Positions 16,738 to 43,319 of a DNA stretch of 64,000 nt are shown here, one piece after another; positions within the stretch are counted from its first letter, which is position 1, and every line of letters starts with the position of its first letter. Origin of the DNA: Candidatus Micrarchaeota archaeon (lineage in GTDB: Archaea > Micrarchaeota > Micrarchaeia > Anstonellales > Bilamarchaeaceae); assembly GCA_043812915.1 (NCBI GenBank), contig JBDRLQ010000016.1, positions 36,318 to 100,317 of the forward strand, in the 5' to 3' direction. The notes beneath the pieces are model-generated. The model did not search any database, had not been told where the DNA came from, and saw nothing but the letters and a program-made list of their open reading frames with translations. The position numbers and the translations under genes are program-made.

Positions 16738-16767
16738 GGGAGGAGTTCGGAGATAAGGAATATAAAG

Positions 16768-23447: not shown

Positions 23448-23477
23448 ATCTTGCCAAAACATTTATAAATCTTGCCA
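23448..23477 (+). promoter_or_regulatory. promoter of the beta-helix surface protein gene: TATA-like TTTATAAA (23462-23469) flanked by 9-bp direct repeats ATCTTGCCA (23448-23456, 23469-23477)
   Basis: Read directly from the sequence. The TATA box is 24 nt upstream of the ATG at 23493. Confidence 0.45.
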
Positions 23478-23492
23478 CAGATTCCTCCCCCT

Positions 23493-26400
23493 ATGCGAGC
23501 CAACGTTGTAATGATTCTGACCATGGTTTTAGTGTTTTCCTCCCTGGGATTCGCCCAGTTCACATTCGGCCCGGGAGACCCGGCAAACGATTGCAGCAAC
23601 CCTGCATTCGGGACTATGACCTTTGCTGCCTCAGGCACATATACCTGGGTGGGCGGCCCTAGTATGTTATATGACAACACTACAGGCTCTGGCCCTAACG
23701 GGTTCAATTGCATAGATGTGGTGGCTTCCGATGTGGTCATAGACTGCATGAACAATGTTATTGATGGCAGCGCAGGTAATGGTGACATCGGCATATATAT
23801 CGCATTGGGAGTTGACAACGTCACAATCAGGAACTGTGTCATACAGGAATTCGGATGGGGGTCCGCTGGCGGGGCAGGGCACAGGCTAGCTGTCGGCAAC
23901 ATATTCGTTGATGGTGCGACAGATGTCGTGCTGGACAGTTCAAACCTCACATTCATCTTCTCTTCGCCCGGCTTGGGGGACCATATCGCCTACAATGCCC
24001 TAATATCTACGTCAGGGCTCACGCTGAACAATTCGCATCTTCTGACGTTCATGCCCCCTGTCCCTGGATCCAATGCGGCAGGCATAGCAGGCAGGCTTGC
24101 CGATGGCTCGCAAATATCGGCGCCTGTTGATGATGTCACAATTGAGGCCTCAAGCATCGAGCAACAGCCGACACACGGCGCTTGGATAGATGGCGACAAC
24201 GTGCAGGTTTATGGCGGGAGCATATTCGAATGGAATACTCTTAATGGCCTTTACATTAACGGTGCGAATGATTACATCGAGGGCAACACTTTTAATAACA
24301 ATATGGGGACCGGGCTTGTGATGTCCAATGCTTATAATTCGCAGGTTCTCTCCAATGACATGATTGGGAACGGCAATTACGGTGCTGCCTTCGTCCTTGC
24401 GGAGGATGTTTATTTCTTTGACAACAACGCCTCGAACAATGGGGGCGGAGGCCTTATCATCGAGGAATCGGAAAATATCACCGCAGAGGAAAATGAGATG
24501 AGCGGAAACACGGATGAAGGAATCTGGGTGGAATCCTCCGGAGTTGCGAATACGGACATCCATATCCTCTCCAATATTATATACGATAATGACTATGGAA
24601 TTGTGATGGAGAATTCCGTTGATTCTGAAATCGACGGAAATGAAATCTGGGACATCAACAATGCGGGAATCCACCTTGAGGGCGTCGACCCGACAACCGT
24701 AAGCGACAATGACGTGGCATTGTGCGACCAGGGCATCTACGCATGCGACGTGCAGTACGTCACTTTCGAATGGAATGAGATTCATGACAACTCAAATGAG
24801 GGTTTCTATCTTGAAGTTGGATGCGACCCGGGAGCGGTGAATGAGTACATCACCTTCGACAACAACGAAATATACAGCAACGGTGATGACGGAATCTACG
24901 CGGCATACACAGACTACATAACGATGACTGACAACCAGGTATATGGCCACGGCTCAAGCGATGGTGCGGAGCTTTACTGGTGCTATGCGCCCGAGATATA
25001 TAGTGACAATAACTTCTCGCTGAACAGCGACAACGGCCTTTACCTCAACACATGGTGCGATGATGCGGTCGTCTACGACAACACGTTCTCAGACAATGAT
25101 TTCGGCTTCAGGATGTACGACGGGTTCAACCTGTATCTCTATGACAACCGGTTCTGGGACAATGACGGCTCAGCAGGTGCATACATAGTCGATTCCGACA
25201 CCATCAATATTTACGACAACGAATTCCTTGGGAACAGTTATGGTGTCTATGCGGACCCGACCACCAGCATAAACATCACAGGAAATACGATAAACGACAG
25301 CACGAATTCAGGAATATACTACGACACCATTATGACGAGCTATATCTACAACAACTATGTAGGGTACAGTGGGGATGATGGAATTGAAATAACAGCTTCC
25401 GACTCTGTAGACATTATAGACAATGTTGTGGAGGAAACCAGCTCTGGGGACTGTGTTTACATAGTTAATAGCCCCCTTTCCAATATCAATGGCAACACGC
25501 TCAGGTACTGCGACAGCGACGGAATCGAGCTTGATAATGCGGAGTTTACGACCATCGACCCCAATTATATACATGACTGCGGGGATAATGGTATCTACGT
25601 GGCGGGCGGTTCTGATTCTGTGACGATAGACGGCAACTTCATATATGACAACCAGATTGGTCTCTACATGGAGGACGGCCTTGCAACCGTCACCAACAAT
25701 GAGGTATATGACAATGACGAGCAGGGCATATACCTGGATGGAGCATACGATGGCGTCTTTGAGGACAACATTGTCTACGACAACGGCTATTCTGGCTATT
25801 ACTTGGACATCAACGCTAACGGTAACACGTTCACCGATGATGTCCTTTATGGAAACGGCTATGACTGTGTTTTTGACTGGGATCCAGAATGCTATGGATT
25901 CTATATAGCCAACAGCGATGATCCTGAGCTGATTAATGTTGTTTCGCGCGACTCCTGGGCAGGGGTGTGGTTCTCGACAGTGAACAGCCCAATTCTGACT
26001 GATGTACGGGTTTACGGGAACACTGAGGATTCTCTGTATATGGAAGGGGCCACAAATATAGATTTCACTAGGGTCGAGCTCTACAACAACGGCGGATACG
26101 GTTTCTACTTCGATTCTGCCAGCACTGGAACAATGACTGACTGTACAGTCCACGACAACGGGCCAGCAGTGTATGGTATTGAGCTGTATGGCGCCAGTGA
26201 CATCACTGCGGACAACCTGCAGATATACAACCATGTGGATGCATGGCTGTATGTCGAGTCCGGTTCCACGCTTGACACAACTGACCTGACAATCGGCTAC
26301 AATACTTTATATGGCGCCGACTGGCCCCCAACCACAATCTTTGACGGGGCTCAGAACACTGACATCTATGACACCAACTTCCTTATCGGGCCTGACTTCG

Positions 26401-27602
26401 TCTCAATGGACAGCACCGACCCGGATACGGATGAGATGAATGTCGCAGGTGTCACTTTGAGGACCCAGGTCGGAGGATGCACTGGCATCACTTATTATCA
26501 TGCGGCAGGTTTCCCTGCAGATGCGGATGAGGTGATTGCAACCGGGGCGCCATTCACTCCAGGCACCAAAGGGTGCGTCGGTTCTGTTGCGACCTATGAG
26601 GCTTCACTGAACTTCTCAGGATACACCGCAGGGGGGACTCTCTCATCCAGCGGTGGAAGCTCTGCAGAGACCAAGAGAATGACGGTCGAGTCAGAGATTC
26701 TCTGCCCGGGCGATGAGGTGGAACTCACAGTCACACACAGCGGTTCGCCAGTTGTTGGAGTGAATGTTGAGCTCACCCAGTACAACCCGTATATGGGGGT
26801 TGTCGCAAGCGGCACCACCGACAGCAATGGGAAGGTGACCCTTGACCTGCCTGCTAGCGGTGTCTACAGGGCTCATCTGAGCAAATCAGGCTATACTTAC
26901 CTCAATCCGTATGTCTTTGAGCACTCCTTGTGCTCAGGGATGGCGCCTGGCGCCTGCAGGACGGATTCCGGATGCGCCCCTGCCGAAGCCTGCGTGGCTG
27001 GCAGCTGTGTCGCCCTTACAGGCGACTGCGGCTATGCCTCGGGGCATGTCTGGATTGACTATGGGTGCTGCTCCAATGCGGACTGCGCGGCCGGAACAAG
27101 CTGCGTGGGCCACGTTTGCATGAGTCCTGAGGAGGAAGTTCATGAAGGCGCTCCAGGGGAAGGCACAACGCCTCCGGGAGAGGTAATCGCGGAAGAGGAT
27201 GCAGATGCTGCTGCAGCGGCCCTGACAGCGCTTGATGAAGCCACCGGAGCAATCTGGGAGGCTGACCAGGCCGGGAAGGACACAACTGCCGCCAAAGCGA
27301 AGTTCATGGAGGCCCAGAATGCCTACAACTCAGGCGACTATGCCAAAGCCAAGGAACTTGCCGAGGAAGCCAAGAGATTAGCTAATGAAGCCGCGGCGCC
27401 TGCGGAGGGTGCAATTCCTGAAGCGGGCGTTGAAGGGCAGCCTACGGCTGGACAGCCGCCAGCAGCGTCTTCAGGCGGACCTGGCATGCTTCTCATAATA
27501 GTGGGCGTGGTAATCCTTATCGCTCTTGGGGCCGGTGCATACTGGCTCCTTGGCCAGGGCAAGCCAAAGGGCGGCTACAAGCCAAAAGGCGGCAGCCAGT
27601 AA
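23493..27602 (+). CDS. giant (about 1370 aa) cell-surface protein: signal peptide, long right-handed parallel beta-helix (PbH1/NosD-like) repeat region, Cys-rich module, CarboxypepD_reg-like domain, Ala/Glu-rich linker, C-terminal TM anchor
   Basis: Dozens of short Asn/Gly/Ile-rich pseudo-repeats (NxGxGI/YxDNxxY style) typical of beta-helices. GVNVELTQ...GKVTLDL...GVYRAHLSKSGY resembles a transthyretin/CarbopepD_reg fold. C-terminal hydrophobic helix plus KPKGG tail. Confidence 0.7.
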   Translation: MRANVVMILTMVLVFSSLGFAQFTFGPGDPANDCSNPAFGTMTFAASGTYTWVGGPSMLYDNTTGSGPNGFNCIDVVASDVVIDCMNNVIDGSAGNGDIGIYIALGVDNVTIRNCVIQEFGWGSAGGAGHRLAVGNIFVDGATDVVLDSSNLTFIFSSPGLGDHIAYNALISTSGLTLNNSHLLTFMPPVPGSNAAGIAGRLADGSQISAPVDDVTIEASSIEQQPTHGAWIDGDNVQVYGGSIFEWNTLNGLYINGANDYIEGNTFNNNMGTGLVMSNAYNSQVLSNDMIGNGNYGAAFVLAEDVYFFDNNASNNGGGGLIIEESENITAEENEMSGNTDEGIWVESSGVANTDIHILSNIIYDNDYGIVMENSVDSEIDGNEIWDINNAGIHLEGVDPTTVSDNDVALCDQGIYACDVQYVTFEWNEIHDNSNEGFYLEVGCDPGAVNEYITFDNNEIYSNGDDGIYAAYTDYITMTDNQVYGHGSSDGAELYWCYAPEIYSDNNFSLNSDNGLYLNTWCDDAVVYDNTFSDNDFGFRMYDGFNLYLYDNRFWDNDGSAGAYIVDSDTINIYDNEFLGNSYGVYADPTTSINITGNTINDSTNSGIYYDTIMTSYIYNNYVGYSGDDGIEITASDSVDIIDNVVEETSSGDCVYIVNSPLSNINGNTLRYCDSDGIELDNAEFTTIDPNYIHDCGDNGIYVAGGSDSVTIDGNFIYDNQIGLYMEDGLATVTNNEVYDNDEQGIYLDGAYDGVFEDNIVYDNGYSGYYLDINANGNTFTDDVLYGNGYDCVFDWDPECYGFYIANSDDPELINVVSRDSWAGVWFSTVNSPILTDVRVYGNTEDSLYMEGATNIDFTRVELYNNGGYGFYFDSASTGTMTDCTVHDNGPAVYGIELYGASDITADNLQIYNHVDAWLYVESGSTLDTTDLTIGYNTLYGADWPPTTIFDGAQNTDIYDTNFLIGPDFVSMDSTDPDTDEMNVAGVTLRTQVGGCTGITYYHAAGFPADADEVIATGAPFTPGTKGCVGSVATYEASLNFSGYTAGGTLSSSGGSSAETKRMTVESEILCPGDEVELTVTHSGSPVVGVNVELTQYNPYMGVVASGTTDSNGKVTLDLPASGVYRAHLSKSGYTYLNPYVFEHSLCSGMAPGACRTDSGCAPAEACVAGSCVALTGDCGYASGHVWIDYGCCSNADCAAGTSCVGHVCMSPEEEVHEGAPGEGTTPPGEVIAEEDADAAAAALTALDEATGAIWEADQAGKDTTAAKAKFMEAQNAYNSGDYAKAKELAEEAKRLANEAAAPAEGAIPEAGVEGQPTAGQPPAASSGGPGMLLIIVGVVILIALGAGAYWLLGQGKPKGGYKPKGGSQ

Positions 27603-27618
27603 GAAACAGGTGACTGAT

Positions 27619-28083
27619 ATGAAAAAAATATTGGCAATTTTCGGATTTCTTCTCCTTTCAGGAGTGGGCTTCGCGGCAATCGGCCCGATAATAGTAAGGC
27701 CCCCGGTTCCAACCGACCCTTTCCTGCAGGCCAGGTTCAATAATGCGGATTGTTGGGCTGGCTATGGAATGGACATAATCAGCGATGCGCAGGGCTATTA
27801 TCCAGACCCGCCCCCGGCGCCCGCGTACTTGCAGACGATTAGTGATGAGATATTCGCCCAGAGGGACATCTTGGCCGGTTATCTCGTCGACGAAAATGTC
27901 GTCGCCTTCAATGCGCAGTACCTGGTCGTAATGAGCTATGTGCAGCAGGCCAAGGCGGCTTACAGGACCGAGGCAAGATATGCCATAGGGCAGGGCTGGG
28001 AAGCCCGCGGGGACATAATAACTGATTTTAATGGCCAGAGGAGCAACCTCATCAGCTGCCTTGCTATGCCGGTTCCAGGATAA
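27619..28083 (+). CDS. small secreted hypothetical protein (signal peptide MKKILAIFGFLLLSGVGFA)
   Basis: Clear Sec signal peptide. Immediately downstream of the giant surface-protein gene. Confidence 0.55.
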   Translation: MKKILAIFGFLLLSGVGFAAIGPIIVRPPVPTDPFLQARFNNADCWAGYGMDIISDAQGYYPDPPPAPAYLQTISDEIFAQRDILAGYLVDENVVAFNAQYLVVMSYVQQAKAAYRTEARYAIGQGWEARGDIITDFNGQRSNLISCLAMPVPG

Positions 28084-28099
28084 TTTTTTTCCTTTTTTT

Positions 28100-29381
28100 G
28101 GCTCTTCTCCCAAGTTAGGATAAAATGTATGGTGTATTTCATGAAGTTTGGAGACAAACATGAAACACAACCATACGTCTGTAATCAGGAACTTATATGC
28201 TTTTAAGGGCTTCCGAATTTCCCAGGTTTTTCTCACTGAAAAAGAGCTCAGGATTTTCCTGGAAAAAACAGTGAAAACTGGCATCTGTCCGGCTTGTGGA
28301 AAAAGATGCAGGAAGATTGAAGACATGTATGAACGCACGGCCAGAGATCTTGACTGTGTCGGCAGGATTGCTTTCATCACTTTCAAACAATACAAGATCA
28401 GGTGTGGCTGTGGCTACAGAGGAATAGAAGAATTGGGTTTCCTCGATAAATACAGCTTCTGCACGAAAAGACTTGAGGAATATGTCTTTCTCCTCTGCCA
28501 GAAGATGAGCATCAAGGATGCTGCCCAGCTATGCAAGCTGAATTGGAAGACTGTGAAGAACATCGACAAGAAGTATCTACGGCAGCTTGTTACTCCCCTG
28601 TCAGAACTCAGCCCCAAGAGGATTGGTGTTGATGAGATTTCCCATGAGAAAAGACACAAGTACCTGACTGTTGTGAGGGATCTTGATCTGAAGAGAGTAA
28701 TCTGGGTTGGCAAGGGCAGAAGAAAAGAAACCCTGGATGAATTCTTCTCAGAGCTTGGAGAAAAGAAGGCCAGGCGTATTAGGGTAGCTGTGATGGACAT
28801 GCATGATCCCTATATCGCCTCTGTGAGTGAGAACTGTCCTGATGCAGACATTATCTTCGATAAATTCCATATCAGCAAGAAGGTGAACGAAGCCCTGGAC
28901 TCTGTGAGGAAAAAGGAGTTTGGCAGGGCAGATGCCCAAGAGAGGAAAAACATGAAGAGGAAGCGTTTCCTCATCCTGAGCAGGAAGAAACGCCTGGATG
29001 ATGAGCAAAAAGAAACAGTTGAGGACCTCAAGAGGATAAATGCCCGTCTTTATGAGGCATATCTGCTGAAGGAGCAGGTCCTGGACATCTTTGATGAAAA
29101 AAGAAATCATGACTGCATTATCCAGATTTATCAGGTGGTCCACCAACGTAGAAAAATCAGGTTTTGTTGTTTTTCAGAAAGTTGTGAAAACACTCAAGAA
29201 TTATTTTTATGGGATAATGAACTACTTTTACTACAGAATAACCAATGCTGCATCTGAAGGATTCAACAACAAGATAAATGTCATCAAGAGAAGGGCGTAT
29301 GGCTTCAGGGATTTGGAGTACTTCATGCTGAAAATCCTGCAAAGTTGTGGCTTGAGGTCATCCTAAAGTCGGAGAAGAGCC
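28100..29381 (+). mobile_element. ISL3-family insertion sequence with imperfect terminal inverted repeats of about 21 bp
   Basis: IRL GGCTCTTCTCCCAAGTTAGGA (28100-28120). IRR reverse-complement GGCTCTTCTCCGACTTTAGGA (29361-29381), 17/21 identical. They bracket a transposase with ISL3 signatures. The element is lower in GC than its flanks. Confidence 0.75.
28148..29366 (+). pseudogene. ISL3 family transposase interrupted by a +1 frameshift in an A6 run (about 29096-29103)
   Basis: N-terminal zinc-finger (CPACGKRC), VDEISHEKRHKYLTVV, and C-terminal RITNAASEGFNNKINVIKRRAYGFRD are hallmark ISL3 motifs. The reading frame switches between ORFs 28148..29257 and 29091..29366. Confidence 0.75.
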
Positions 29382-29420
29382 TTTATATTTTTTTGTATCC
29401 AACCCTATTGCTGTGATAAT

Positions 29421-30305
29421 ATGGCAGGCGTAAGTAGGGCAATTCGGCCAATTGATTCTGATTTACAACAGATGCAGCAGTCATTCAACCAGCTCTTTAG
29501 GGCCTTTCATATCCCTCCTGCTGACCGTGCAATTGTTCAGCTTAGGGTAAATCGGTACATCGATGATCTTATTTTCAATGTCGGTTTTGATGGCCGCCTT
29601 GCCCACTTTGATTCTATCCTTCCTTCTGAATTGCAATCATCTTCAGACGGTTTTGCAGATAGGAGGGCTGCACTCTCTTCAGTAGAAATAACTTCTACAA
29701 TTGTCAGTTCTATCGCCCGGGCACATCGGGAAAATCCAGGAGGACGTGACTTCTATTTTGTCTCGGCTCCAACAAGGGATGGCGATGTGACACGTGTTAT
29801 GGATGAATTCGCGGTTCCTGCAAGTGAAAGGGATTCAACACATGTTCTTTTGGAAGAGCTGGAAATCCCAGGCCGCTTTAGGGCTGATATTCTTGCCTGT
29901 GCCTTGATTATTGAGCGGGGGCATTATCCAAGCCCAAGAAATTTCATGGGCAACTTCCCCTCAACATTCCCTGAATCCCGAGACTGGAGCATCAGGGCGG
30001 CTTGGACATATTTTACCCGTCTTGTTAATAGTGCCGAAATAAGTAATGAAAGAATCCCGATACTTGGCGGAGCCACCCTTCGTGATAGGCTGATGCCATC
30101 TTTTAGGGAGGTGTTCAATATCCTTGATTCTCTGGCACAAGGAAACGTATCAAGAGAAGAAGCATATTCTGGGGCTATCGAGGCTCTTCGCAGGTATAAT
30201 AATTATTCAGTATTTCCTGGATTTTTAGGGCATTTCCCCCCGGTGCTTTTAGAAATAGGGACTTCGATTGTCAGGGATTCTGTGCCACGAAGAGTGAATC
30301 CATAA
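29421..30305 (+). CDS. hypothetical protein (294 aa), lower GC than the host average
   Basis: ORF with no recognisable family. Immediately outside the IS right end. Confidence 0.45.
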   Translation: MAGVSRAIRPIDSDLQQMQQSFNQLFRAFHIPPADRAIVQLRVNRYIDDLIFNVGFDGRLAHFDSILPSELQSSSDGFADRRAALSSVEITSTIVSSIARAHRENPGGRDFYFVSAPTRDGDVTRVMDEFAVPASERDSTHVLLEELEIPGRFRADILACALIIERGHYPSPRNFMGNFPSTFPESRDWSIRAAWTYFTRLVNSAEISNERIPILGGATLRDRLMPSFREVFNILDSLAQGNVSREEAYSGAIEALRRYNNYSVFPGFLGHFPPVLLEIGTSIVRDSVPRRVNP

Positions 30306-30331
30306 ATCTAAGAAAAAAGATTTTGAACAGA

Positions 30332-30600
30332 CTATTCTCCGTCAGTCCCCTCATCAACTATGGTCCCTTCCGGAGCTTCAGGTGCATTTCCGGGAGGACA
30401 CAGATATGCATTTCCGCATTCAGGGGCATCGAATTCTCCTGCCTCCTGCAGTCTCCTCCAGGAAGGGCATGCGGCGTTCTCGCATCCGGTAATCCCACCC
30501 ATGCCCATTAAGCCCATGTAGACGCCTATCTGGTTCCATCCAGGGTCATTCTAGTCCTCAAAACTGAGTTTGAAGCGGTCTACATAGTCTAATTATTAAT
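30332..30600 (-). pseudogene. orphan 3' fragment of a paralog of the adjacent 943-aa secreted protein gene (in-frame stop; 5' part missing)
   Basis: Minus-strand translation FKLSFED*NDPGWNQIGVYMGLMGMGGITGCENAACPSWRRLQEAGEFDAPE aligns with the C-terminus of the 30729..33443 product (CKLNYYDKTDSGYNKLAVYMSLMGY...GCENVACPSWRRLQEGGDFDVPE). Homology stops abruptly at about 30600. Confidence 0.7.
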
Positions 30601-30728
30601 TTCTTCTTATTTTCCTTTTTTGCACGCCGCAAGTGTCTTAGTCGAGCCAGATCAATAAAATGAACAGGCTCATCCATATTCATTTAGATTGGGAATTAAG
30701 AGCCAATGATCAGCTGAATGGCTTACAC

Positions 30729-33443
30729 TCATTCCCCTTCTTCTTCCTCATCATCAAAATCAGGCACAGAGCCCGGTGGCTCGCTCTCGTAGTGGGCGTA
30801 TGGGCTTTCCTCAGGCACATCGAAGTCGCCACCTTCCTGGAGCCTCCTCCAGCTCGGGCACGCGACATTCTCGCAGCCTCCGGCTCCAAGCTCACCCTCG
30901 CTGTTGTATCCCATCAGGCTCATGTATACCGCAAGCTTGTTGTAGCCAGAGTCCGTCTTGTCATAATAGTTGAGCTTGCAGCTGTACACGTAATCTATGA
31001 AGTCCTGGATTCCCCAGCAGTATGGTTGTTCGTCCTTCATGTCGCCCTCAGCGTGGCATGCCGCCAGGTATAACGGGCTGACGCAGTCCGCGTTTGTCCA
31101 GTCCTTCCTCTCCTCGAATTCGGTTATCCAGACCGCTCCCTGGTCGTTCCCCCAGGTTCCGAAATAAATGTGCCCTGCGATGTAGTACTCAAGCACCCTC
31201 TCCTTGTCAGGATTGTCCCTGATTCCGAAGAGGTCTCCATCATCCCCCCGGGTTCTGTACTTGTCAACTACCTGGCCCGCCATTTCCACAGCTCGCGCAA
31301 TGTCATAAGTCCCCATGCAGGCTGAGTCCGCGGGGTCGAAGGGGTTGAAATCATAGCCGCACTGGGTGATTGCCCGATCAGGGTTGTCGGCAGTCCTTCT
31401 GTTCTGGCCAGTTCCGCCATCCCTGGTCTGCACCGCGTCGATGAACTGGTCCTCATACACCCCGCAATCGGATGGCGAGTCCTCGTAGATGCAGAACTCC
31501 TCCCTCGGCCAGAATGTGTAGGGGCTGGTCATGGTCTGCATAAGCCCTGTCGCCATCCATCTCCAAGATGGGGTTTCCCCTGCCGCATCCGGATCGGGCT
31601 GGGGCTCAAGATTGTAATTGCATTCTCCGCTTGGGTCTTCCATGAAATTGTATCCAGCGCTGTATTTTCCGGGAATGCACCTGCTCGGGCAGTCTGTCCC
31701 GCTCCTGCATGAGCAGGCGGCGGCGCACATGTCCATTCCGCCCTCTGCAATCGCGACAGCGCGCGCATATAGCGGATCGATGTTATGCGTGCTTGCCCAG
31801 CTATCTATCATCGGATAGGCCGTGCAGGCAATCTCCATGTCTGTAAGCCCTGGGAAGCGCTCACGCGTTTCGGCAGACACGCTGACTCCCCTTGGCTCTA
31901 TTATCCCTGCATAGGGGAACTCAAGCTGTTCGTTCATGCACGCGTCGCAGCGCACATAGGGCTCCATGGGTTCGAAAAGGTCAGGGGTCATGGGAGAGCC
32001 GAAATCCCGCAGCCCTCCGGCGCCATATTGCATGTGCAGCAGGCTGTCCCACTGCTCGTTGAAGTTGCATCTGCCACCTGTCTGGTTAGGGAAAACAATG
32101 GGTATCCCGGGGGTTGGCGAGAATTCCCCTGCGCAGCAGTCCTGCTCAGGATTGGCCGCGCAGTCGGCGCAGCTTGTCTCCACCCTCATTATGCCTGTGA
32201 ATCCCTGGCACCCTCCGAACCAGCTCTGCATCCGATCGATGTTCTTTCCGATTGAGCAGTCCTCGCAGCTCATCGGATTCCCGCGCATGCCTCCAAGCGT
32301 TGAATTGAAATCATATGGTGAGGCGCCTATTACCCCGGTCTCAAGGAAAGCTGGCAGGTTGGGGAAGAAAGCGTTATAGCCCCGAATCATCTCTGCCTCT
32401 GTCCATTCGCACTCGACTGAGCCATCCTCATTGAGCACCTCTCCGCCCGAGTCGAAGAGCATGTATGGCATTACCGTCGGCTTCTTGAACGTCTGCCAGA
32501 CGAAGGAAGAGAAGTTGTAGGCATCAAGGTACAAGTCGTTGTAATCGCAGGAGTGCGCCCTGTGGCTGTTCATCCCGAAGGCCACAAGGTCGAAGTTCTC
32601 GGACCGCGGATCCTCAAGAGTGGCCTGCACTCCGGTAATATCATCCATCCTGGCTCCGAGGGCCACCATGCAGTACACCTCGCCGTCCCTTCCATTGGGG
32701 CACTGGTCCTTCATGGCCACGGCCTGCTCAAGAACGAGCTCCCTGGTGGCATCGTCCGATAAATCTGCGTCCATCTCTGTTGTGATTATGATTGGCCCGA
32801 CAGGCCCCCAGAGCTGCCCGTGGGTCACCGATGAGCCCCCGTGATACAAGGTATCCGCTATCGCTCCTGCCCTCGTGACATTAGGCGCCCCGCCGCTATA
32901 TAGCACATAGACCGGCATGACCTCCTTGTCAAGAAGGCAGATTGCCCTTGAGGGGTCAACGTCGCTGTACTGGGCGGTCTCCACATCGCCAATCAGCCAC
33001 TGCACGGCCATCTTCAGCTGGTTGTTGCACCAGCGGTTGGCCTCGCCGAAATCAGCGAAGGTGGGCCCGGCGCCAACCATGAAGTGGCGTATCCCCATGT
33101 CGCTGATGCTGCCGTTGGTAAGGTAATTATACCTCTCCTGGCTCGCCTCATACCTCTCAGCAGGATCATCAATATGCGTGGTGCCGGCAAGGTTCTCGAA
33201 CCTGCAGTCGGCGCCGACAAAAGAAGTGAAAACCCCCCAGATGTTGCTGGAGTTCGTGCATACCATCGCCCAGCACTCTACATCGCCGCATATGTCCACC
33301 TCTGCAGGGTCATATAACGGCACTCTCCCATGCTCGGCGAGCCTGTCCGCCCAGTTTTCGCTGTAGTCATTGCCGCCGCTTATCCGGTCGACACAGCCGG
33401 CAGCCAGCAGTATCAGCAGTATTGGCAATATCACTCTTCTCAT
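30729..33443 (-). CDS. large (about 905 aa) Cys-rich secreted/lipoprotein-like protein of unknown function with an acidic C-terminal tail
   Basis: Start taken at MRRVILPILLILLAAGC (signal peptide plus lipobox-like AGC). About 45 Cys. Conserved C-terminal GCENVACPSWRRLQE motif followed by an acidic tail (DFDDEEEEGE). Confidence 0.65.
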   Translation of the reverse strand: MRRVILPILLILLAAGCVDRISGGNDYSENWADRLAEHGRVPLYDPAEVDICGDVECWAMVCTNSSNIWGVFTSFVGADCRFENLAGTTHIDDPAERYEASQERYNYLTNGSISDMGIRHFMVGAGPTFADFGEANRWCNNQLKMAVQWLIGDVETAQYSDVDPSRAICLLDKEVMPVYVLYSGGAPNVTRAGAIADTLYHGGSSVTHGQLWGPVGPIIITTEMDADLSDDATRELVLEQAVAMKDQCPNGRDGEVYCMVALGARMDDITGVQATLEDPRSENFDLVAFGMNSHRAHSCDYNDLYLDAYNFSSFVWQTFKKPTVMPYMLFDSGGEVLNEDGSVECEWTEAEMIRGYNAFFPNLPAFLETGVIGASPYDFNSTLGGMRGNPMSCEDCSIGKNIDRMQSWFGGCQGFTGIMRVETSCADCAANPEQDCCAGEFSPTPGIPIVFPNQTGGRCNFNEQWDSLLHMQYGAGGLRDFGSPMTPDLFEPMEPYVRCDACMNEQLEFPYAGIIEPRGVSVSAETRERFPGLTDMEIACTAYPMIDSWASTHNIDPLYARAVAIAEGGMDMCAAACSCRSGTDCPSRCIPGKYSAGYNFMEDPSGECNYNLEPQPDPDAAGETPSWRWMATGLMQTMTSPYTFWPREEFCIYEDSPSDCGVYEDQFIDAVQTRDGGTGQNRRTADNPDRAITQCGYDFNPFDPADSACMGTYDIARAVEMAGQVVDKYRTRGDDGDLFGIRDNPDKERVLEYYIAGHIYFGTWGNDQGAVWITEFEERKDWTNADCVSPLYLAACHAEGDMKDEQPYCWGIQDFIDYVYSCKLNYYDKTDSGYNKLAVYMSLMGYNSEGELGAGGCENVACPSWRRLQEGGDFDVPEESPYAHYESEPPGSVPDFDDEEEEGE

Positions 33444-33495
33444 GAGAGAAACCTCTAATAGATAAGAAAAAGGAACAAAAAAGAATAAAAAGAAG

Positions 33496-36400
33496 CTAGT
33501 AGAGCCTGGACCTGCAGCTCGCGTTCGAACAGGTGGCTCCGCGATAGCCCGCGCGGCCACAGTTGGCGCAGTAGCAGACGCTGGACATTCTCCAGGGCCT
33601 CATCGCACGCCCTAGGGCGGCGCCTGTCCTGTCCGCAGTGTCTGCGAGCCTGTTCATATAGCCTCCGCCCCTGTGCCCGTTCTTCACGAAGTCCACAAGG
33701 CTGGTGGTTATATTCCTGAGGCCGAACGATCCGGTTCCGGGCGCTGGCATGTGCCACATGAAGAGCAGCGGGTTGGCCCATCCGAACATCGAGTTCTGGG
33801 ATACGCCGAACCCTCTCATCTCCTGCCCTCTCCTTATCTGGAGGGCTTCTGCGGATATGGTCCTCCTGTGGTGCGTGTCAAGCGCGGAATCGTGTATCTC
33901 CTTTTCGAAGAGTACGGACGCATCACCGCTCCTGAGCATGTTCGCCGCCATGGTCGGGTCCAGCCTCAGGTTCGCCCTGTAGCTGTATGCGCTCAGCCCC
34001 GGGTTGGCAGCTCCTATTCTGACGTCGGAGTACACACCCTCGTTCTGCAGCCACATGTCCTGCGCCGCTGCCCCAAGGCCTCCCCTGAAGTCGTTGCCCG
34101 CAAGCTGCCTCGCTTCAAGGCTGCTCTGGAACACGTTGGACTTGTTGAGCGCCTGGGCAAGCCTGCCCCTGCCTATGCTCGCGCTGAACGGGTTCAGCGA
34201 CTGCAGCGCTTCCAGCACCCTCGGCTGGGTGAAGTTGTACTGCCTGAGCGGGTCGTTCACAGAGTCGAACTTGGAAGCGTATCCCTGCATGGACATCTGC
34301 ATTCCTCTGAACATGTTCGTGTAGGGCGCCATCATCCTCCTCGCGACCGATATCACGGCACCTGAGTGGGCCATGAAGTTCATATATTCGCTCTTGGTCA
34401 TGTACGACTGCAGGTTGTTCGAAAGCGAGTAGGTGTCCTGAGGCCCGAAGTGGAACTTGGCTGCCCATGCCTGGTGGGTTCCGAATGAACTGGAAGCCAG
34501 CCACGGGTTCCTGTCTATCGCGAATGCCCACACCTGGTCGAACCTGCCCTGGTCTATTGCCAGCCTGCGGTATGCCTTCTGCTCCTGGGCGCTGAGCCCG
34601 AGCTGGTTAAGGTCTGCTGACATTATCCTCTGGGCGTTCCTCCATGATGCCTGCCTGTAGAACTCCGAGTAAGGAGTTATCTCCCAGGAAGCCTTGTGGA
34701 GCTCACCACCAGCGGAAAGTGCGACACGCGACACATAGTCCCCGACATGGAGTGCCATGTCCCTGAACGGCTTTATCGCCTTCATCAGGCCTGGAGCCTC
34801 CCAGTTGAACATGCGGAATATGCTCGGGGCAAGGGGCATAACCTCCCTCTTGGCCATCACCTTCACGTCGCTATTGTTCCAGAACTTTCCGTAGTCATAG
34901 GTCTGGTTGCCGTACCTCCATGTGACAGCTCCCAATATCTTCTGCTTCTCATAGCTGTATCCGCCGTCCTTGGCCCATGCGGTGACCTCGTTCATGAATG
35001 CGTTCCATTCATGTGTGGTCCTCTTGCTCTGGAGGTCCTGCCACCTTCTCTCAAGGTCGCTCCTTCCGCCGAAGTGTATGTTTACATCATCCGGATTGAA
35101 GAGCATGTGGGACTTCGTCTCCCTGTTGTAGAGCGACACTTCTCCTGCGAGCATCCTGTCCTTGTCACCTACTGGCATGGCATGCCTGTAGGGGCAGTAT
35201 CCTCCGTCAGACATAAGCACCCACGGCTGCTTGAATCCAGCCAGGTCGTCATATGTTATCTTGCTGCCGAGCACCTTCTTCAAGTCATCCTGGTGCTCCA
35301 TCGCAAGGGTCCTGAACTTCTTTAAGTCCTCTGGATTCTGCATCTTCATGGTCTCAAGGAACCTGAGGTCAGCGTGGTTGCCCGGCATGCCCTTGTTCTC
35401 CTTCAGGGCCTTTTCCATGAACGCTGCGAGCACGTTGTTGTAGAAGCCCGTAGTCTCATGCATCTGTCCCCCATAGGCGTGGTTGCAGAATGTGGAGTTC
35501 GCCCTGTTCCGCATATCCTTCTCTATGTAATCTGACACCCACATCTGCTGGGCCTTGGTCCTCCTCTGGTCGACAGACCAGCTTGTGGAGCCGACTGCCC
35601 GGTCAAGCCTTGCTTCAACAGACGGATCGAGCGCTGTCACGTATCCACCGCCGAACCTGCGGTTTATCCACGGCGCCATTGCTATATTCTCTGAAGTGTC
35701 TATGTGCGAGAGCCAGTGCGTCTTCATGTCTGTCTTGAACGCCCCTGTCGGAGGCGCTAGCTCGAAGGCTCCCTGGTGCCACACCCTCCTTCCATCAGGG
35801 GTCATTCCGCTCTTGGGTATTGCCCCGCCGAACGTGAAGTCCACCATCTCGGCTATCGCGGCTTGGCTGACACTCTTGCCCTTCACCTTCTGGAACATCT
35901 CCCTGCCCTCGGCGGTGAACATATCGGCGAAGTAGCCTCTGGCCCTGTCTCGTATCTTGCCAAGCTGGACCTCGTTCCTCATGTATTCCGGAAGCTCATG
36001 CATGTTGCTTGCCGGATTGAGGGTAACCATCCTGTTGACGGCCTTTAGCCACTCGGACTGGAGCGCTTCCTTTATGCCCGCGCCGTATACGTGGCCTTCC
36101 TCATTCGCATATACCATTGAGCGGAACACCGACATGTTCCATATCTCCTGGGCGGTCATGTGCTCCCTGCCCACGAATGAATGGAACGCGTTGGGGCTGC
36201 TCGCGCTTCCCGGCGGGAAGTCGTTGTGGTGCTGCTCTATCACCTGCTGGAGAGCGAGCATCTTGGCGAATTCAGGCATCTTGGACGCTTCCACAGCTTC
36301 AACACTGCGCTGGAACTGCAGCATGCCCGAGAACTCGCTCCTGGCTATGCCCTGCCTCTCGGCAAGATTCAAGAGCTGGCCGAGCTTCTGCTCCCCGCTG

Positions 36401-38292
36401 GCCTTGGTGTTTCCGAGTATATGCCTTATCTCTTCTTCCATTGCTGCGAATGCGGCTGATGACCTCACGCCCGACATCTTGACCACGTCGAGGTCGCGGC
36501 ATCCTATGTTGGCCAGTTCCTCCTGGGTCATGTGGACATTGACGCCTGCCTTTCCATATATGCGGGATACTACGTGCCGCATTTCATCGCGGGTAAGCTC
36601 ATGCCTGAGCTTGCCATAGAAGAAACCCATGTTCTGGTCCACGCGGTACATGCCCCCCACCACCATCTCGTGGGGTGGGGTGGTGACCTGCTTGTAGAAC
36701 GCTCCTGCCGCCCCGCCCCTCCTCTGGGCTGCTGCGGCCCTGGCTTCGAAGGCGGGCTTTCCGCCTACTACTGCCGTGGTGCCTGTCTTGGCCATTTCCC
36801 TGGCGAATGCTATTCCGTGTGTTCCGGCGGCCCTGGTTCCCCTGGCAACCACCTGCGTGGTTCTTGACATGGAATCCACAGTGCCTGCGACTATGGGGCC
36901 GAGTATGGCGTACCTTCCGAATGCCTTTCCAAGCGCGCTCTGCACCCTCTGGTGCGCCGCGCTGCGCACTCCGAGCTCCGGGTGCGCTGTTAGCACTTCG
37001 AGCCTCTTCCATGTGCTAAGGCCGCTTATATACTGCCTAATTGAGCCTCCCAATACGGCGTCCTGCCCTCCCCTGCCTTCAAGCGTTGACATAAGCTGGG
37101 ATACTACCCTGTGCTCCTCCTCTCCATAGTGGTATGGGAGCCTGCGCGCAAGGCTTCTTGCCTCCTCAGCCGACATGCCTGCCCTGCGGGCTGCGACCGC
37201 CATGCTCTCGGACATCTGCCTCAGCTGCCCGACATCGCCTGCGGCCCTGTCCCCTGCGGTTGCGGGCGCTGCCTGCGCCAGCCTGCGTATCTCACTTACT
37301 TCTGAAGGCGTTACTCCCGCGCCTCTGGTGGCGAGCCTCTCTGAAGTAAGGGCTGTCGCTCCTGCCGCAAGGCCCATGTTGCTCTTTAGCGTCCTCTTCA
37401 TTTCCGTGTAACCGAAAGGGGCGAGTATCTGCCCACTGGCCGAGACTCCCTTTGGAGCCGGAAGCCTTGGCGTGGTTATGTCTAGCAATGATATGGGCGA
37501 TTTGCCCGAAAAGTACATCGATGCCAGAAGAAGGCCGAGTATCATGAATATCCCCAGGCACGGAAGCGTTCCTCCTATTCCGCTTGGCCCTGCAACCAGG
37601 GAAGTTATCATGTCCGTAAGCTCCGGGAGTATTCCCGGGCTTGTGTCTTCGGTTGTGAGCGTGGTGGTGTACGGAGTAGTCGTTATCCCTCCATTGAGCT
37701 GCGCCGGGGCCACTACCTTCACGTTTATCCTTCCTGTTCCTCCGAGCTCCCCTCCTGTTGAATACAAGCTTGTGGGCACTTCGCAGGATACATAGTAATA
37801 TGGTATGGCGTCCGCGCCTTCACCCACGGTCCTGTAGTCCTCCGCGGTGAGTACTGGGCTGCAGTCAGGTATTCCCACCCAGTCCCTCGCGTTGGGGCTC
37901 CAGTAAAGGAATGTGAAATTAGCATTGGGCACTGTCATGTATGTTACGTCCTGTTCAGTGCTGCCGAGCCTTTCAGCGCTCGCACTGTGAATGCAGCTCT
38001 GCCAGTCGTATCCTCCGTCTTCCCTGATGAATTCGGCGGCGTCGCAGTACTCATGGTAGCCTTCTCCCCTGCAACACTCTGCTATGCGCTGCGTTTCCGA
38101 AAAATCCACTGCGGACGCTTCGGTACGGAAAAGAAGCAGGCTCGCCTCAAGGACATTGGAGCCCTCTCCGGTCGGCATTACCACCAACTGTCCCTCGAAG
38201 AAATCAGAGCCTCCGAAAAGGTCGGCACTGACTGTGGGGACCAGCATCAGCAAAACAAACATCCCAACGAACAAATTTCTTATTGCGGACAT
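33496..38292 (-). CDS. giant (about 1598 aa) membrane protein of unknown function: signal peptide, extracytoplasmic N-domain of about 230 aa, single TM helix, very large Q/N/M/W/R-rich domain, C-terminal Cys4 zinc-ribbon-like tail
   Basis: ATG at 38292 gives MSAIRNLFVGMFVLLMLVPTVSA. The ORF track uses an in-frame GTG at 38301. Hydrophobic segment GTLPCLGIFMILGLLLASMYF at about aa 240-262. C-terminal CYCANCGRAGYRGATCSNASC. No recognisable catalytic motif. Confidence 0.65.
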   Translation of the reverse strand: MSAIRNLFVGMFVLLMLVPTVSADLFGGSDFFEGQLVVMPTGEGSNVLEASLLLFRTEASAVDFSETQRIAECCRGEGYHEYCDAAEFIREDGGYDWQSCIHSASAERLGSTEQDVTYMTVPNANFTFLYWSPNARDWVGIPDCSPVLTAEDYRTVGEGADAIPYYYVSCEVPTSLYSTGGELGGTGRINVKVVAPAQLNGGITTTPYTTTLTTEDTSPGILPELTDMITSLVAGPSGIGGTLPCLGIFMILGLLLASMYFSGKSPISLLDITTPRLPAPKGVSASGQILAPFGYTEMKRTLKSNMGLAAGATALTSERLATRGAGVTPSEVSEIRRLAQAAPATAGDRAAGDVGQLRQMSESMAVAARRAGMSAEEARSLARRLPYHYGEEEHRVVSQLMSTLEGRGGQDAVLGGSIRQYISGLSTWKRLEVLTAHPELGVRSAAHQRVQSALGKAFGRYAILGPIVAGTVDSMSRTTQVVARGTRAAGTHGIAFAREMAKTGTTAVVGGKPAFEARAAAAQRRGGAAGAFYKQVTTPPHEMVVGGMYRVDQNMGFFYGKLRHELTRDEMRHVVSRIYGKAGVNVHMTQEELANIGCRDLDVVKMSGVRSSAAFAAMEEEIRHILGNTKASGEQKLGQLLNLAERQGIARSEFSGMLQFQRSVEAVEASKMPEFAKMLALQQVIEQHHNDFPPGSASSPNAFHSFVGREHMTAQEIWNMSVFRSMVYANEEGHVYGAGIKEALQSEWLKAVNRMVTLNPASNMHELPEYMRNEVQLGKIRDRARGYFADMFTAEGREMFQKVKGKSVSQAAIAEMVDFTFGGAIPKSGMTPDGRRVWHQGAFELAPPTGAFKTDMKTHWLSHIDTSENIAMAPWINRRFGGGYVTALDPSVEARLDRAVGSTSWSVDQRRTKAQQMWVSDYIEKDMRNRANSTFCNHAYGGQMHETTGFYNNVLAAFMEKALKENKGMPGNHADLRFLETMKMQNPEDLKKFRTLAMEHQDDLKKVLGSKITYDDLAGFKQPWVLMSDGGYCPYRHAMPVGDKDRMLAGEVSLYNRETKSHMLFNPDDVNIHFGGRSDLERRWQDLQSKRTTHEWNAFMNEVTAWAKDGGYSYEKQKILGAVTWRYGNQTYDYGKFWNNSDVKVMAKREVMPLAPSIFRMFNWEAPGLMKAIKPFRDMALHVGDYVSRVALSAGGELHKASWEITPYSEFYRQASWRNAQRIMSADLNQLGLSAQEQKAYRRLAIDQGRFDQVWAFAIDRNPWLASSSFGTHQAWAAKFHFGPQDTYSLSNNLQSYMTKSEYMNFMAHSGAVISVARRMMAPYTNMFRGMQMSMQGYASKFDSVNDPLRQYNFTQPRVLEALQSLNPFSASIGRGRLAQALNKSNVFQSSLEARQLAGNDFRGGLGAAAQDMWLQNEGVYSDVRIGAANPGLSAYSYRANLRLDPTMAANMLRSGDASVLFEKEIHDSALDTHHRRTISAEALQIRRGQEMRGFGVSQNSMFGWANPLLFMWHMPAPGTGSFGLRNITTSLVDFVKNGHRGGGYMNRLADTADRTGAALGRAMRPWRMSSVCYCANCGRAGYRGATCSNASCRSRLY

Positions 38293-38330
38293 CTTAATCA
38301 CACTTCTAAGTAAATCGGGTCGACGCCGCT

Positions 38331-38391
38331 TTATAAACCTGTAGGTTTTATAGTTATATGAAAACTACAAAAACTACAAAATCTGTAGTTT
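38331..38391. promoter_or_regulatory. divergent promoter region: TATA-like TTTATAAA (38331-38338) plus three copies of a TGTAG(G)TTT/AAACTACA motif, including the palindrome AAACTACAAAATCTGTAGTTT (38371-38391)
   Basis: Read directly from the sequence: cctgtaggtttt ... aaactacaaaaactacaaaatctgtagttt. It lies between the giant gene (minus strand) and the ATPase gene (plus strand). Confidence 0.45.
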
Positions 38392-38423
38392 ATTGTCGTA
38401 AAACAAGATAAGAAGGGGTAAAT

Positions 38424-39485
38424 ATGAAAGGAACGAATCCATTCCCGCTATGGGGAGAGACACCTCAGAGCATTATAGGTAGGAATAACGAAATTGATAT
38501 ATTTAATAGTTACCTAAACGCGGTTTCCTCCGGTACGCCCGTGCTCGTGCTCTCAACCGGGGGCCCCGGGAGCGGAAAGACGCTGCTTTTCCGCCGTTTA
38601 CGCCGTGAGAGCATAAAGGAAGGCCTCGCGTCACCATATATAAAGATAGAGCGGGGGGAGTCCGAATCCGACCTGGTGAACAAGCTCCACCAGGAGATGA
38701 TAGGCTTCCTGGAGACCCAGGAAGGGGAGCGGGCCAGGCCCGGCAGGTATTCCGCCTCCATAAACGCCCTCAGGAAGAGGAGCGCTGGCACCCTGGAGGG
38801 CTTTTCGAGGGCGGCCGCCTCGGACTTAGGCGGGGTGATGCACGGGATAATGTTCTTCATAGACGATTTCGACAACCTGCGCAAGAGCGAGGATGAGTTC
38901 CAGAAGATTGCCTCGATTGTCAGCAGGGGGAAACTGCCCGTCGGCTTCGCGCTCTCATCCACCCGGGATTACGGGGGCAGCGACCCAGTAATACGGAGAT
39001 TCGCCCTTTCCGCCTTCACAGAGCATGATGTGCTTGAGCTTGTGGATAAGGCTCTTGGGAAAGGGCCGCCGAAGATGGGAGAGCAATGCCTGAAATCAAT
39101 TATGGCCGACAGCGGCGGGAATCCCCGCCTGGTGAAGACTTCCTGCTGGATGCTTTATGAGAGATTGAAGGAAACTGACAAGATTATAACGAAGGGGCAT
39201 TACCTGGCGGCTTTGCCGGCCCTGACGAGCATGCTAGGCAGGGAATGGTTCGGCCCGATGTACAGCAGGACACCCGAATCAGAGAGGAAAATCCTGAAAG
39301 TTCTGGCCAGGGAAGGAAAGCAGATGCACATATCAGATGTCGCAACGGCAATGGGAAAGCCTCTTGGCCCAACGACAGCCCTCGCAAAGAGGCTCCTGGA
39401 CAGGGGGCAGATACTCCGGATGGACCGCGGCGTTTACCTTCTCTTTTCCAGGCTCTATGGGAGATATGTCCTTAGCATGTCATAA
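38424..39485 (+). CDS. archaeal-type AAA ATPase (Arch_ATPase-like) with C-terminal winged-helix domain
   Basis: Walker A GGPGSGKT. Walker B MFFIDDFDNL. C-terminal wHTH-like segment. AGGGGT RBS upstream. Confidence 0.7.
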   Translation: MKGTNPFPLWGETPQSIIGRNNEIDIFNSYLNAVSSGTPVLVLSTGGPGSGKTLLFRRLRRESIKEGLASPYIKIERGESESDLVNKLHQEMIGFLETQEGERARPGRYSASINALRKRSAGTLEGFSRAAASDLGGVMHGIMFFIDDFDNLRKSEDEFQKIASIVSRGKLPVGFALSSTRDYGGSDPVIRRFALSAFTEHDVLELVDKALGKGPPKMGEQCLKSIMADSGGNPRLVKTSCWMLYERLKETDKIITKGHYLAALPALTSMLGREWFGPMYSRTPESERKILKVLAREGKQMHISDVATAMGKPLGPTTALAKRLLDRGQILRMDRGVYLLFSRLYGRYVLSMS

Positions 39486-41128: not shown

Positions 41129-41132
41129 AGAA

Positions 41133-43236: not shown

Positions 43237-43319
43237 CGACCACTACTTGCCAGCCTATGTTTTTTAGCCTGATGGTTGCCTGAGAATGGGTTTTAATCCT
43301 TGCCACCGATGACTAAACC

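Follow-up and report, generated by a model that had tools for sequence, protein, structure and literature searches.

A native three-gene module of Micrarchaeota with a giant membrane protein and a Cys-rich, putatively glycan-cutting lipoprotein, and the lineage-specific insertion beside it

The window analyzed here is a 64,000-nucleotide stretch of a Candidatus Micrarchaeota archaeon genome (contig JBDRLQ010000016.1), and our subject is the 16-kb block at 23.4–39.5 kb, which an earlier note made from the sequence alone had read as one accessory island of large surface proteins, an insertion sequence and an AAA ATPase. The open reading frame (ORF) map contains all eight genes of that inventory at or near the positions described, including the frameshifted ISL3 element, the lower-GC orphan gene and the pseudogene fragment. 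The block is not one island, however, but a composite of a native three-gene module and an adjoining lineage-specific insertion. The core module, at 30.7–39.5 kb, consists of a Cys-rich lipoprotein, a 1601-amino-acid (aa) membrane protein that we call the giant, and a divergent AAA+/winged-helix gene; the insertion, at 23.4–30.7 kb, lies between the module and topoisomerase VI. The trio is an undescribed native module kept by nearly all Micrarchaeota examined, and it is neither a defense system nor a provirus. At about even confidence, we regard it as a regulated cell-envelope module that would combine a glycan-cutting enzyme with a transmembrane scaffold, native to these cells and bordered by a layered insertion. 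Its features are:

30729–33446 (the 943-aa ORF extends to 33560), minus strand: Cys-rich lipoprotein of ∼905 aa, with a lipobox and two glycan-hydrolase-like domains
33496–38301 (probable start 38292), minus strand: giant membrane protein, 1601-aa ORF, with 82 homologues
38327–38339, minus strand: BRE (B recognition element)/TATA-like box of the giant–lipoprotein operon, reading GGTTTATAAAGCG on the minus strand
38361–38392, no strand assigned: three-half-site element, the proposed operator, from aligned intergenic regions
38424–39485, plus strand: AAA+ (AAA_16, PF13191) ATPase of 353 aa with a C-terminal winged helix, the proposed module regulator

To compare the locus across species, we scanned one genome per species and obtained 52 species-level loci, all labeled Micrarchaeota or unclassified archaeon, which were compared by tblastn. 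In all 40 testable loci the giant gene is followed directly, on the same strand, by a lipoprotein homologue; in 45 of 49 it is preceded by a divergent ATPase gene, and in 34 of 38 topoisomerase VI A is found within 9 kb. In the complete chromosome OY970229.1 the locus is placed at 445–470 kb. The window and two long contigs share one gene order: TFB, several genes, the ATPase gene (minus strand), the giant and a protein of ∼830–880 aa (both plus strand), topoisomerase VI A and B (both minus strand), and a KH-domain gene. When the neighboring genes in these two contigs were compared by BLASTP, the lipoprotein showed 30–32% identity (E 1e-115 to 1e-120) and the ATPase 41–46%. The earlier note had left the co-occurrence of the 943-aa, 1601-aa and ATPase genes to comparison with relatives, and the outcome is strongly positive. 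Its description of the block as bordered by housekeeping genes holds on the topoisomerase VI side (subunits B and A upstream), but not on the downstream side, where the gadCB-like pair, an amino-acid permease and a pyridoxal phosphate (PLP)-dependent decarboxylase, is shared with one sister lineage only.

Base composition leads to the same division of the block. The GC content at third codon positions (GC3) is 0.68–0.72 in the three module genes, against a housekeeping range of 0.60–0.74, and is clearly deviant only in the ISL3 gene (0.53) and the orphan gene (0.38). The tetranucleotide profile departs from the norm over 22–38 kb. The raised GC of the two big genes sits in codon position 2 and is thus an effect of amino acid composition; with GC3 at native values, we rejected horizontal transfer of these genes. 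There is no tRNA gene, integrase or direct repeat at the borders of the 23.4–39.5-kb block, which as a whole does not have the marks of a genomic island; only the sub-block at 23.4–30.7 kb shows part of them. Because gene order is conserved across loci and GC3 falls inside the housekeeping range, we conclude that the trio is native and core and that the supposed island is a composite.

The giant–lipoprotein pair reaches further than the trio. Four divergent Micrarchaeota loci (L052–L055) keep the pair and topoisomerase VI without the ATPase gene. In three distant, unlabeled archaeal loci (L056–L058), the protein encoded after the giant is likewise a Cys-rich lipoprotein and belongs to the same family as that of the window (hhalign probability 100, E 1e-58), and the place of the ATPase gene, divergently upstream, is taken by six mutually paralogous polytopic membrane proteins of 290–490 aa (L056 2671–9936, L057 2908–9935 and L058 2687–9764). 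These paralogues adjoin SecDF genes in two of the three loci; they have no Pfam match, and neither the window nor the 10 kb around the pair in the Micrarchaeota loci contains a homologue of them. Since both groups of loci keep the pair without the ATPase gene, the pair is the ancient core and the regulator a later addition.

The giant has 82 homologues, nearly all of them full-length (1550–1650 aa) and 30–63% identical, and the named ones all come from Candidatus Micrarchaeota, Bilamarchaeum or 'ainarchaeum', which identifies the window as DNA of a micrarchaeote, one of the tiny DPANN archaea. A wider, single-sequence search of 1.84 billion representative proteins returned 132 relatives, many of which are 1500–2300-aa proteins collinear with the family profile, while the most distant share the transmembrane (TM)/juxtamembrane module alone. 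In the window protein, whose gene probably starts at 38292, hydrophobic segments lie at residues 1–32 (a signal peptide or first TM helix) and 240–267. They delimit a variable ectodomain with conserved Cys residues (33–239), which is followed by the TM helix and juxtamembrane region (240–305), an Ala/Gly-rich linker, an all-alpha body (∼400–1560) and an invariant C-terminal four-Cys zinc ribbon (C1578, C1581, C1591 and C1596). Conservation is uneven, with a mean identity to the window giant of 23% in the ectodomain, 40% in the body (401–1601) and 77% in the TM and juxtamembrane region, whose juxtamembrane consensus is GKSPISLLDITTPRLPxPKGVxAGGQILAPFGYTEMKRT.

Three sequence properties bear on the topology of the giant. 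Among 22 homologues, Cys makes up 2.3% of the ectodomain versus 0.12% of the body, and N-glycosylation sequons occur at 1.03 per 100 aa in the ectodomain, close to the value for the secreted lipoprotein, versus 0.46 in the body. The positive-inside rule is also obeyed, with a K+R value of 0.55 before the second hydrophobic segment (the TM helix) and 2.0 after it. From these distributions the bulk of the protein is placed in the cytoplasm, and we deduce a probable arrangement with a small disulfide-bonded ectodomain outside and a 1300-aa helical body inside the cell. An AlphaFold2 (AF2) model of residues 402–1601 (predicted local distance difference test score, pLDDT, 83.4; predicted template modeling score, pTM, 0.83) is almost entirely helical, with helices of up to 60 residues. 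Foldseek searches of the PDB with the body gave a best E of 0.026 and template modeling (TM-) scores below 0.1, and the giant has no match in Pfam, NCBIfam, PHROGs or PADLOC or by PDB sequence profile; a Pfam scan of 22 homologues returned weak zinc-finger matches only. The predicted fold, which is confidently modeled, thus resembles nothing known, in keeping with the original description of a membrane protein without a recognizable family.

The lipoprotein is the member of the pair for which a biochemical activity can be proposed. The 943-aa ORF, with 38 Cys residues, most likely starts at Met39 (33446) and would then give a lipoprotein of ∼905 aa with the lipobox LLAAGC, of which Gly17–Cys18 is invariant in homologues. 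More than 20 further Cys residues are invariant in the Micrarchaeota set and, together with the invariant lipobox Gly-Cys, these indicate a lipid-anchored, disulfide-rich protein on the outside of the membrane. The AF2 model (pLDDT 75, pTM 0.78) contains a GH-A-like (β/α)8 barrel at about residues 55–460, with eight alternating strand–helix units over residues 117–417 (DSSP on the model), and Foldseek, most of whose matches for the model fall on this barrel, aligns it with GH53, GH2, GH5 and GH26 enzymes (E 4e-5 to 1e-3; target-normalized TM-scores of 0.5–0.56). Glu224, which ends strand β4 (219–224), is invariant in 29 sequences that include the distant relatives; the residue before it is Thr, Ala, Val or Ser, and not the Asn of the N-E motif that is usual around the clan GH-A acid/base Glu. 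All 25 Micrarchaeota sequences have Asp332 after strand β7 (324–330), whereas the distant relatives do not conserve it.

Helices make up the C-terminal half of the model, which carries an SLT/GH23-like domain at about residues 525–880. Here Glu568, in an 'ES' motif, is invariant in the same breadth of 29 sequences including distant relatives, with Ser or Thr as the next residue in most and Gly in the window protein. Nearly all members have GLMQ or a closely similar motif, and the third SLT-type motif, Y-x-A-x3-Y-x-G, is only loosely like AYNxG. Weak SLT (PF01464) matches occur in 11 of 25 members at E up to 1 (best 2e-4), with none in the window protein, and the top PDB sequence-profile matches are the lytic transglycosylases EtgA and MltC at the catalytic helix, at E 0.05–1.5, which is below significance. 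We conclude from these folds and motifs that the lipoprotein may work like a bifunctional glycan hydrolase, which we do not assign to GH23 or clan GH-A; on its predicted structure it is a new combination of known enzyme folds. The earlier note had described a 943-aa Cys-rich secreted protein and had recognized no catalytic signature in any of the three large proteins of the block. The protein is indeed Cys-rich and exported, but is probably shorter and lipid-anchored, and Glu224, Glu568 and GLMQ are signatures of the kind that had been missed, whereas none is apparent in the giant.

The third gene of the module encodes an ATPase that matches PF13191 (AAA_16) with 38.8 bits against a cut-off of 32.6, and HTH_24 at borderline level (19.2 versus 21.9 bits); no sensor domain is present. 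It has 88 homologues, the named ones from Micrarchaeota except for one short contig labeled Aenigmatarchaeota, and across a set of 60 homologues conservation reaches at least 90% in Walker A (G46..G51-K52), in Walker B (D147-D148) and at many positions of the winged-helix region. Between this gene and the giant lies the proposed operator, which on the plus strand consists of ACTACA at 38364–38369 followed by the palindrome ACTACA-N5-TGTAGT at 38373–38389. The conserved element as a whole is written ACTACA-N5-TGTAGT-N3-TGTAG. An alignment of the intergenic regions of 26 loci, read toward the giant, gives ACAAtAAACTACA-N5-TGTAGTTTTTGTAGTTTT, ∼20 nt, AAACATTTATAAAGCG, 15–35 nt and the start codon.

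The operator is closely tied to the ATPase gene. It occurs a single time in the 64-kb window. Of 48 loci with the ATPase gene, 44 contain the operator exactly once and in the same place, compared with none of the seven loci without the gene. Among 241 million metagenome records scanned for ACTACANNNNNTGTAGTTTTTGTAG there were 29 exact matches, 26 of them beside an ATPase homologue and also beside a giant gene wherever the contig reaches that far; the surroundings of the other three are unrelated, and these seem to be chance matches or repeats of another kind. Separately, an unrelated short metagenome contig (L084, 1380–1560) carries several CTACAAAAACTACA-type repeats that resemble operator half-sites and has no ATPase or giant gene. 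In the window genome only, among the aligned intergenic regions, an additional TGTAGG half-site-like sequence abuts the TATA box at 38339–38345.

A BRE/TATA-like box stands ∼25–35 nt before the start codon of the window giant, and a AAACATTTATAAAGCG-like sequence is kept at the same distance in the 26 loci; judged by the archaeal promoter consensus, this box probably acts as the operon promoter. We also considered an RNA element in the intergenic region and rejected it: Rfam gave no match there, and variants in the palindrome arms are single-sided, with no compensatory pairs. On these grounds a protein-binding DNA site is preferred over an RNA hairpin. The operator precedes the operon TATA box and overlaps the site at which transcription of the ATPase gene probably starts, a position from which we infer autorepression of the ATPase gene and control of the operon.

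The sub-block next to the module is made up of two layers, with the following features:

23472–27602, plus strand: beta-helix surface protein of 1376 aa, with Beta_helix/NosD and CarboxypepD_reg-like domains; older insertion
27619–28083 (ORF from 27526), plus strand: small signal-anchored or secreted protein, likely start Met32; older insertion
28100–29381, plus strand: decayed ISL3-family insertion sequence of 1282 bp, with a frameshifted transposase and terminal inverted repeats
29421–30305, plus strand: orphan gene of 294 aa, with no family match and low GC3; recent insertion
∼30377–30592, minus strand: lipoprotein-gene 3'-end remnant (second allele), with an in-frame stop

Homologues of the beta-helix, small-protein, orphan and gadCB-like genes were found by tblastn in none of the 52 species loci, from which the ISL3 element and the lipoprotein-gene remnant are likewise absent. 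The closest relative of the locus is a metagenome sequence (L060) from a sister lineage, with 63% identity in the giant and 77% in the ATPase, and it has at matching places the C-terminus of the beta-helix protein (71% identity), the small protein (40%) and the gadCB-like genes (79–82%). It has no ISL3 element, orphan gene or lipoprotein-gene remnant. The older layer thus comprises the beta-helix and small proteins, common to one sister lineage only, and the recent layer the decayed ISL3 element, the orphan gene and the displaced remnant. As all of them are present in L060, the beta-helix, small-protein and gadCB-like genes are taken as older family-level additions on both sides of the module, and the absence of the other three from L060 marks these as recent. 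The gadC-like permease and PLP-dependent decarboxylase genes (39554–42533) are an accessory insertion into a conserved backbone.

The beta-helix protein has seven Beta_helix/NosD stretches (PF13229, E 4e-88), a CarboxypepD_reg-like domain, 29 Cys residues and hydrophobic segments at both termini, the C-terminal one (1330–1362) being a membrane anchor. The small protein has a hydrophobic segment at residues 32–59 and no family match in Pfam, NCBIfam or PHROGs. The transposase of the insertion sequence (DDE_Tnp_ISL3) is split over two ORFs (28148–29257 and 29091–29366) between terminal inverted repeats of 22 nt (28100–28121 and 29360–29381) that begin GGCTCTTC and are 86% complementary; the flanks are AT-rich, a clean 8-bp target duplication is not visible, and a search of plasmid records did not find the element. 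The orphan gene, with a GC content of 0.46, has no match in Pfam, NCBIfam, PHROG or PADLOC and no relative in IMG/VR. The remnant is homologous to the C-terminus of the 943-aa protein and is 81% identical to the C-terminus of the L060 lipoprotein, compared with 49–52% to that of the resident gene. The resident lipoprotein gene, when aligned with that of L060 (2918–5704), shows identities of ∼0.7–0.85 in its first half and ∼0.5–0.65 in its second. This pattern suggests that the 3' part of the gene was replaced by recombination and that the old end was left behind as the remnant.

We compared the module proteins with the known systems that they most resemble. The lytic transglycosylases MltC, EtgA and VirB1 (PF01464, CAZy GH23) share with the lipoprotein a lipid anchor at the outer face of the cytoplasmic membrane and a catalytic Glu in 'ES' followed by GLMQ and a Y..G motif. 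Unlike them, the lipoprotein comes from a murein-less archaeon, falls below the Pfam threshold (best homologue E 2e-4), and has large Cys-rich insertions, an N-terminal GH-A-like TIM barrel and a constant 1600-aa partner. The clan GH-A enzymes (GH53 galactanase, GH5, GH26 and GH2) have a comparable (β/α)8 barrel, and the invariant Glu224 of the lipoprotein stands at the end of its β4, but identity to them is ∼10%, there is no CAZy or Pfam match, Asn does not precede the β4 Glu, and an Asp stands at β7. Some hydrolases of the clan GH-A type are encoded in exopolysaccharide operons, and hydrolases encoded in bacterial exopolysaccharide and secretion-system operons clear or trim polymer. Large SLT-like proteins described in other DPANN archaea in 2021 (PMC8204110) are likewise extracellular, with an SLT-like domain and a proposed role at the surface or in cell–cell contact; they differ, by description, in reaching 3000 aa, in belonging to other lineages, and in having no TIM barrel, giant partner or regulator described.

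The regulator belongs, as a new member, to a known kind. The archaeal 'Cdc6-like AAA superfamily ATPases' (AAA_16/ATPase_2) also combine Walker A and B motifs with a C-terminal winged helix. STAND regulators of the MalT type, in which an AAA_16-type NTPase is fused to a DNA-binding domain, are comparable as well. The module ATPase differs from these proteins in having only 330–350 aa and no sensor or repeat domain, and it is not a canonical Orc1/Cdc6. A divergent target operon with repeated half-sites also fits this comparison; the operator and the target genes are unique to the module locus. We also considered and rejected an S-layer identity for the block proteins. The S-layer protein of 'Ca. 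Micrarchaeum harzensis' (Micr_00292) contains PF05123 and almost no sulfur-containing residues (bioRxiv 10.1101/2021.04.28.441871). The block proteins are Cys-rich and lack PF05123; the lipoprotein resembles Micr_00292 as a large (∼100 kDa) secreted envelope protein of Micrarchaeota, but with its lipobox, its enzyme-like folds and 38 Cys residues in the 943-aa ORF, and with no PF05123 match, it is a different protein. The libraries, structure database and incomplete literature that we searched hold no earlier description of the giant family, the pair, the module or the operator, and in the sources the module proteins are labeled 'hypothetical protein' or 'ATP-binding protein'. Neither the giant nor the complete module matches anything known.

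Under the reading that we favor, a regulated envelope module, the lipoprotein would cleave a β-linked glycan between the membrane and the S-layer, most likely one of the cell's own envelope. The giant would be its transmembrane partner, anchoring or positioning this activity and, in the role of scaffold or signal transducer, coupling it to the cytoplasm. The ATPase/winged-helix protein would bind the operator as an ATP-dependent oligomer, and binding would repress the ATPase gene and control the giant–lipoprotein operon. Several observations weigh against this scheme, each functional step of which is drawn from folds, motifs and gene order. Archaea lack murein, which leaves the lipoprotein without an obvious substrate. 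The window lipoprotein itself lies below every Pfam threshold, and its SLT assignment consists of motifs and sub-threshold matches; in the barrel, the β7 acid is Asp332 instead of the Glu that is the clan GH-A nucleophile. The body of the giant has no apparent catalytic motif, and neither fold nor family searches give a clue to an activity. Binding of the operator by the ATPase protein is suggested by their co-occurrence, which is confounded with phylogeny, and both the ATPase gene and the operator are missing from seven loci, the four of Micrarchaeota that diverge most and the three distant ones.

The most serious competitor, although we consider it clearly less probable, is that the module is directed at a host: the lipoprotein would digest glycan of a partner cell, the ectodomain would recognize the host and the body would anchor the contact site of an attachment or feeding device. 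The ectodomain is the fastest-evolving part of the giant (23% identity versus 40% for the body), and the 3' half of the lipoprotein gene looks recombinant, with a sister-like remnant downstream, as is typical of diversifying surface genes. For the large extracellular SLT-like proteins of other DPANN, an attack on host walls has been suggested (PMC8204110), and EtgA, the best PDB sequence match, serves an envelope-crossing machine. However, an S-layer has been reported for Micrarchaeota (bioRxiv 10.1101/2021.04.28.441871), and a lipid-anchored enzyme would sit beneath the cell's own S-layer, far from a partner; the known hosts, Thermoplasmatales, are wall-less; the family is present in Micrarchaeota orders proposed as possibly free-living (PMC8561730); and most of the mass of the giant is cytoplasmic. 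We think it improbable that the pair instead forms the central part of a larger machine in the membrane, serving export, assembly or cell-to-cell transfer, in which the glycan hydrolase clears or trims polymer. The six polytopic paralogues that precede the pair in the three distant loci, with SecDF adjoining in two, would fit such a machine, as would the TM and juxtamembrane region, which is the most conserved part of the giant (77%) and the only part recognizable in its farthest relatives, and which suggests a conserved membrane partner. Against it, homologues of the paralogues are missing from the window and from the 10 kb around the Micrarchaeota pairs, the pair is not accompanied by a transport ATPase, pilin or glycosyltransferase, and the giant has a cytoplasmic body whose fold is unlike that of a transporter.

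Two further explanations are very unlikely. One is the original proposal that all eight genes form a single horizontally acquired accessory island, a surface-variation, host-attachment or conflict system. The block does hold an insertion sequence, a low-GC orphan gene and a pseudogene remnant, its beta-helix and small proteins are missing from the 52 other species loci, and its tetranucleotide profile deviates over 22–38 kb. For the trio this proposal is contradicted by synteny in nearly all Micrarchaeota examined and by native codon usage; the borders bear no integrase, tRNA gene or direct repeat, and the beta-helix gene accompanies the trio in one sister lineage only. A defense system was rejected because PADLOC gives only sub-threshold matches, both to the ATPase (BrxD, E 3.5e-4, 17.8 bits; AbiEi, E 8e-4), and no match for the other block proteins. 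A proviral or viral origin, which the earlier note had also thought unsupported, was rejected in the absence of hallmark genes and of IMG/VR relatives for the giant or the orphan gene; the sole PHROG match in the block is a tail-spike family that hits the generic beta-helix. The other explanation, to which we assign equally little weight, is a replication origin, with the AAA+/winged-helix protein as a very divergent Orc1/Cdc6, the repeats as origin-recognition boxes, and the giant and lipoprotein as mere neighbors. The domain order resembles that of Orc1/Cdc6, with a weak TIGR02928 match; conserved repeats directly adjoin the ATPase gene; local gene order is unusually stable, with DNA topoisomerases nearby; and no canonical orc1/cdc6 gene is seen in the 64-kb window. 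Yet the TIGR02928 match scores 19.8 bits against a cut-off of 181.3 and covers residues 13–92 only, and in many loci the intergenic region measures 89–125 bp and is filled by a single repeat cluster and the TATA box, with no room for an unwinding element or flanking boxes. The low score and the short intergenic region make an origin unlikely, and the most divergent Micrarchaeota loci have neither the gene nor the repeats.

Several other parts of the window drew our attention. Downstream of the block, at 43320–44942 (plus strand), is a 540-aa Cys-rich lipoprotein with the lipobox LLIGC, repeated CxYGNPxC-like modules and no Pfam or PADLOC match; an HExxH-like motif near its C-terminus (SHELTH) suggests a possible secreted zinc metalloprotease. 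Adjacent genes at 51264–55428 (plus strand) encode proteins of 817 and 543 aa that each start with a Kazal-type protease-inhibitor-like domain and have high GC at codon position 2; tetranucleotide deviation here equals that over the giant gene, and the opposite strand beside them carries two MacB/FtsX-type permease genes and a gene for a CARDB protein. A 132-aa ORF at 42908–43306 (minus strand), with a GC3 of 0.34 and a GC1 (first codon position) of 0.63, reverses the native pattern and is probably no real gene in that frame. The edge of the window (1–1000) has 35.6% GC, and the ORF at 18–668, with a GC3 of 0.355, is far from the window norm, which suggests foreign DNA. At 13202–17241 (minus strand), a Complex1_49kDa/NiFe-hydrogenase large-subunit-like gene occurs together with one for a HycI-type maturation protease, which suggests that this organism has a membrane-bound complex of the hydrogenase type. 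Finally, a 431-aa protein without a family match is encoded at 19289–20584 (plus strand), where most loci carry a response-regulator gene; its only homologue is in L019, at 32% identity.

DPANN archaea make up a large share of archaeal diversity, and the distinctness of their genomes lies largely in unannotated protein families (PMC8204110). Conserved hypothetical genes are common in these genomes, which tempers the weight of finding one more conserved module. The locus shows, all the same, that what reads as an island from sequence alone can be a core locus with an adjacent insertion. Envelope building and cell contact in DPANN are largely obscure, and the module is a concrete, testable unit of that biology. 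As a more speculative extension, which we hold only tentatively and think rather unlikely as it stands, the giant and the lipoprotein could be the core of an unrecognized envelope-spanning apparatus of Micrarchaeota and related small archaea, completed in sister lineages by the six polytopic paralogues, that builds or operates cell-to-cell contacts such as bridging or uptake from a partner, with the body of the giant as a new class of membrane-tethered cytoplasmic scaffold. If the module is such an envelope or contact machine, it would provide a molecular handle on the biology of Micrarchaeota cells.

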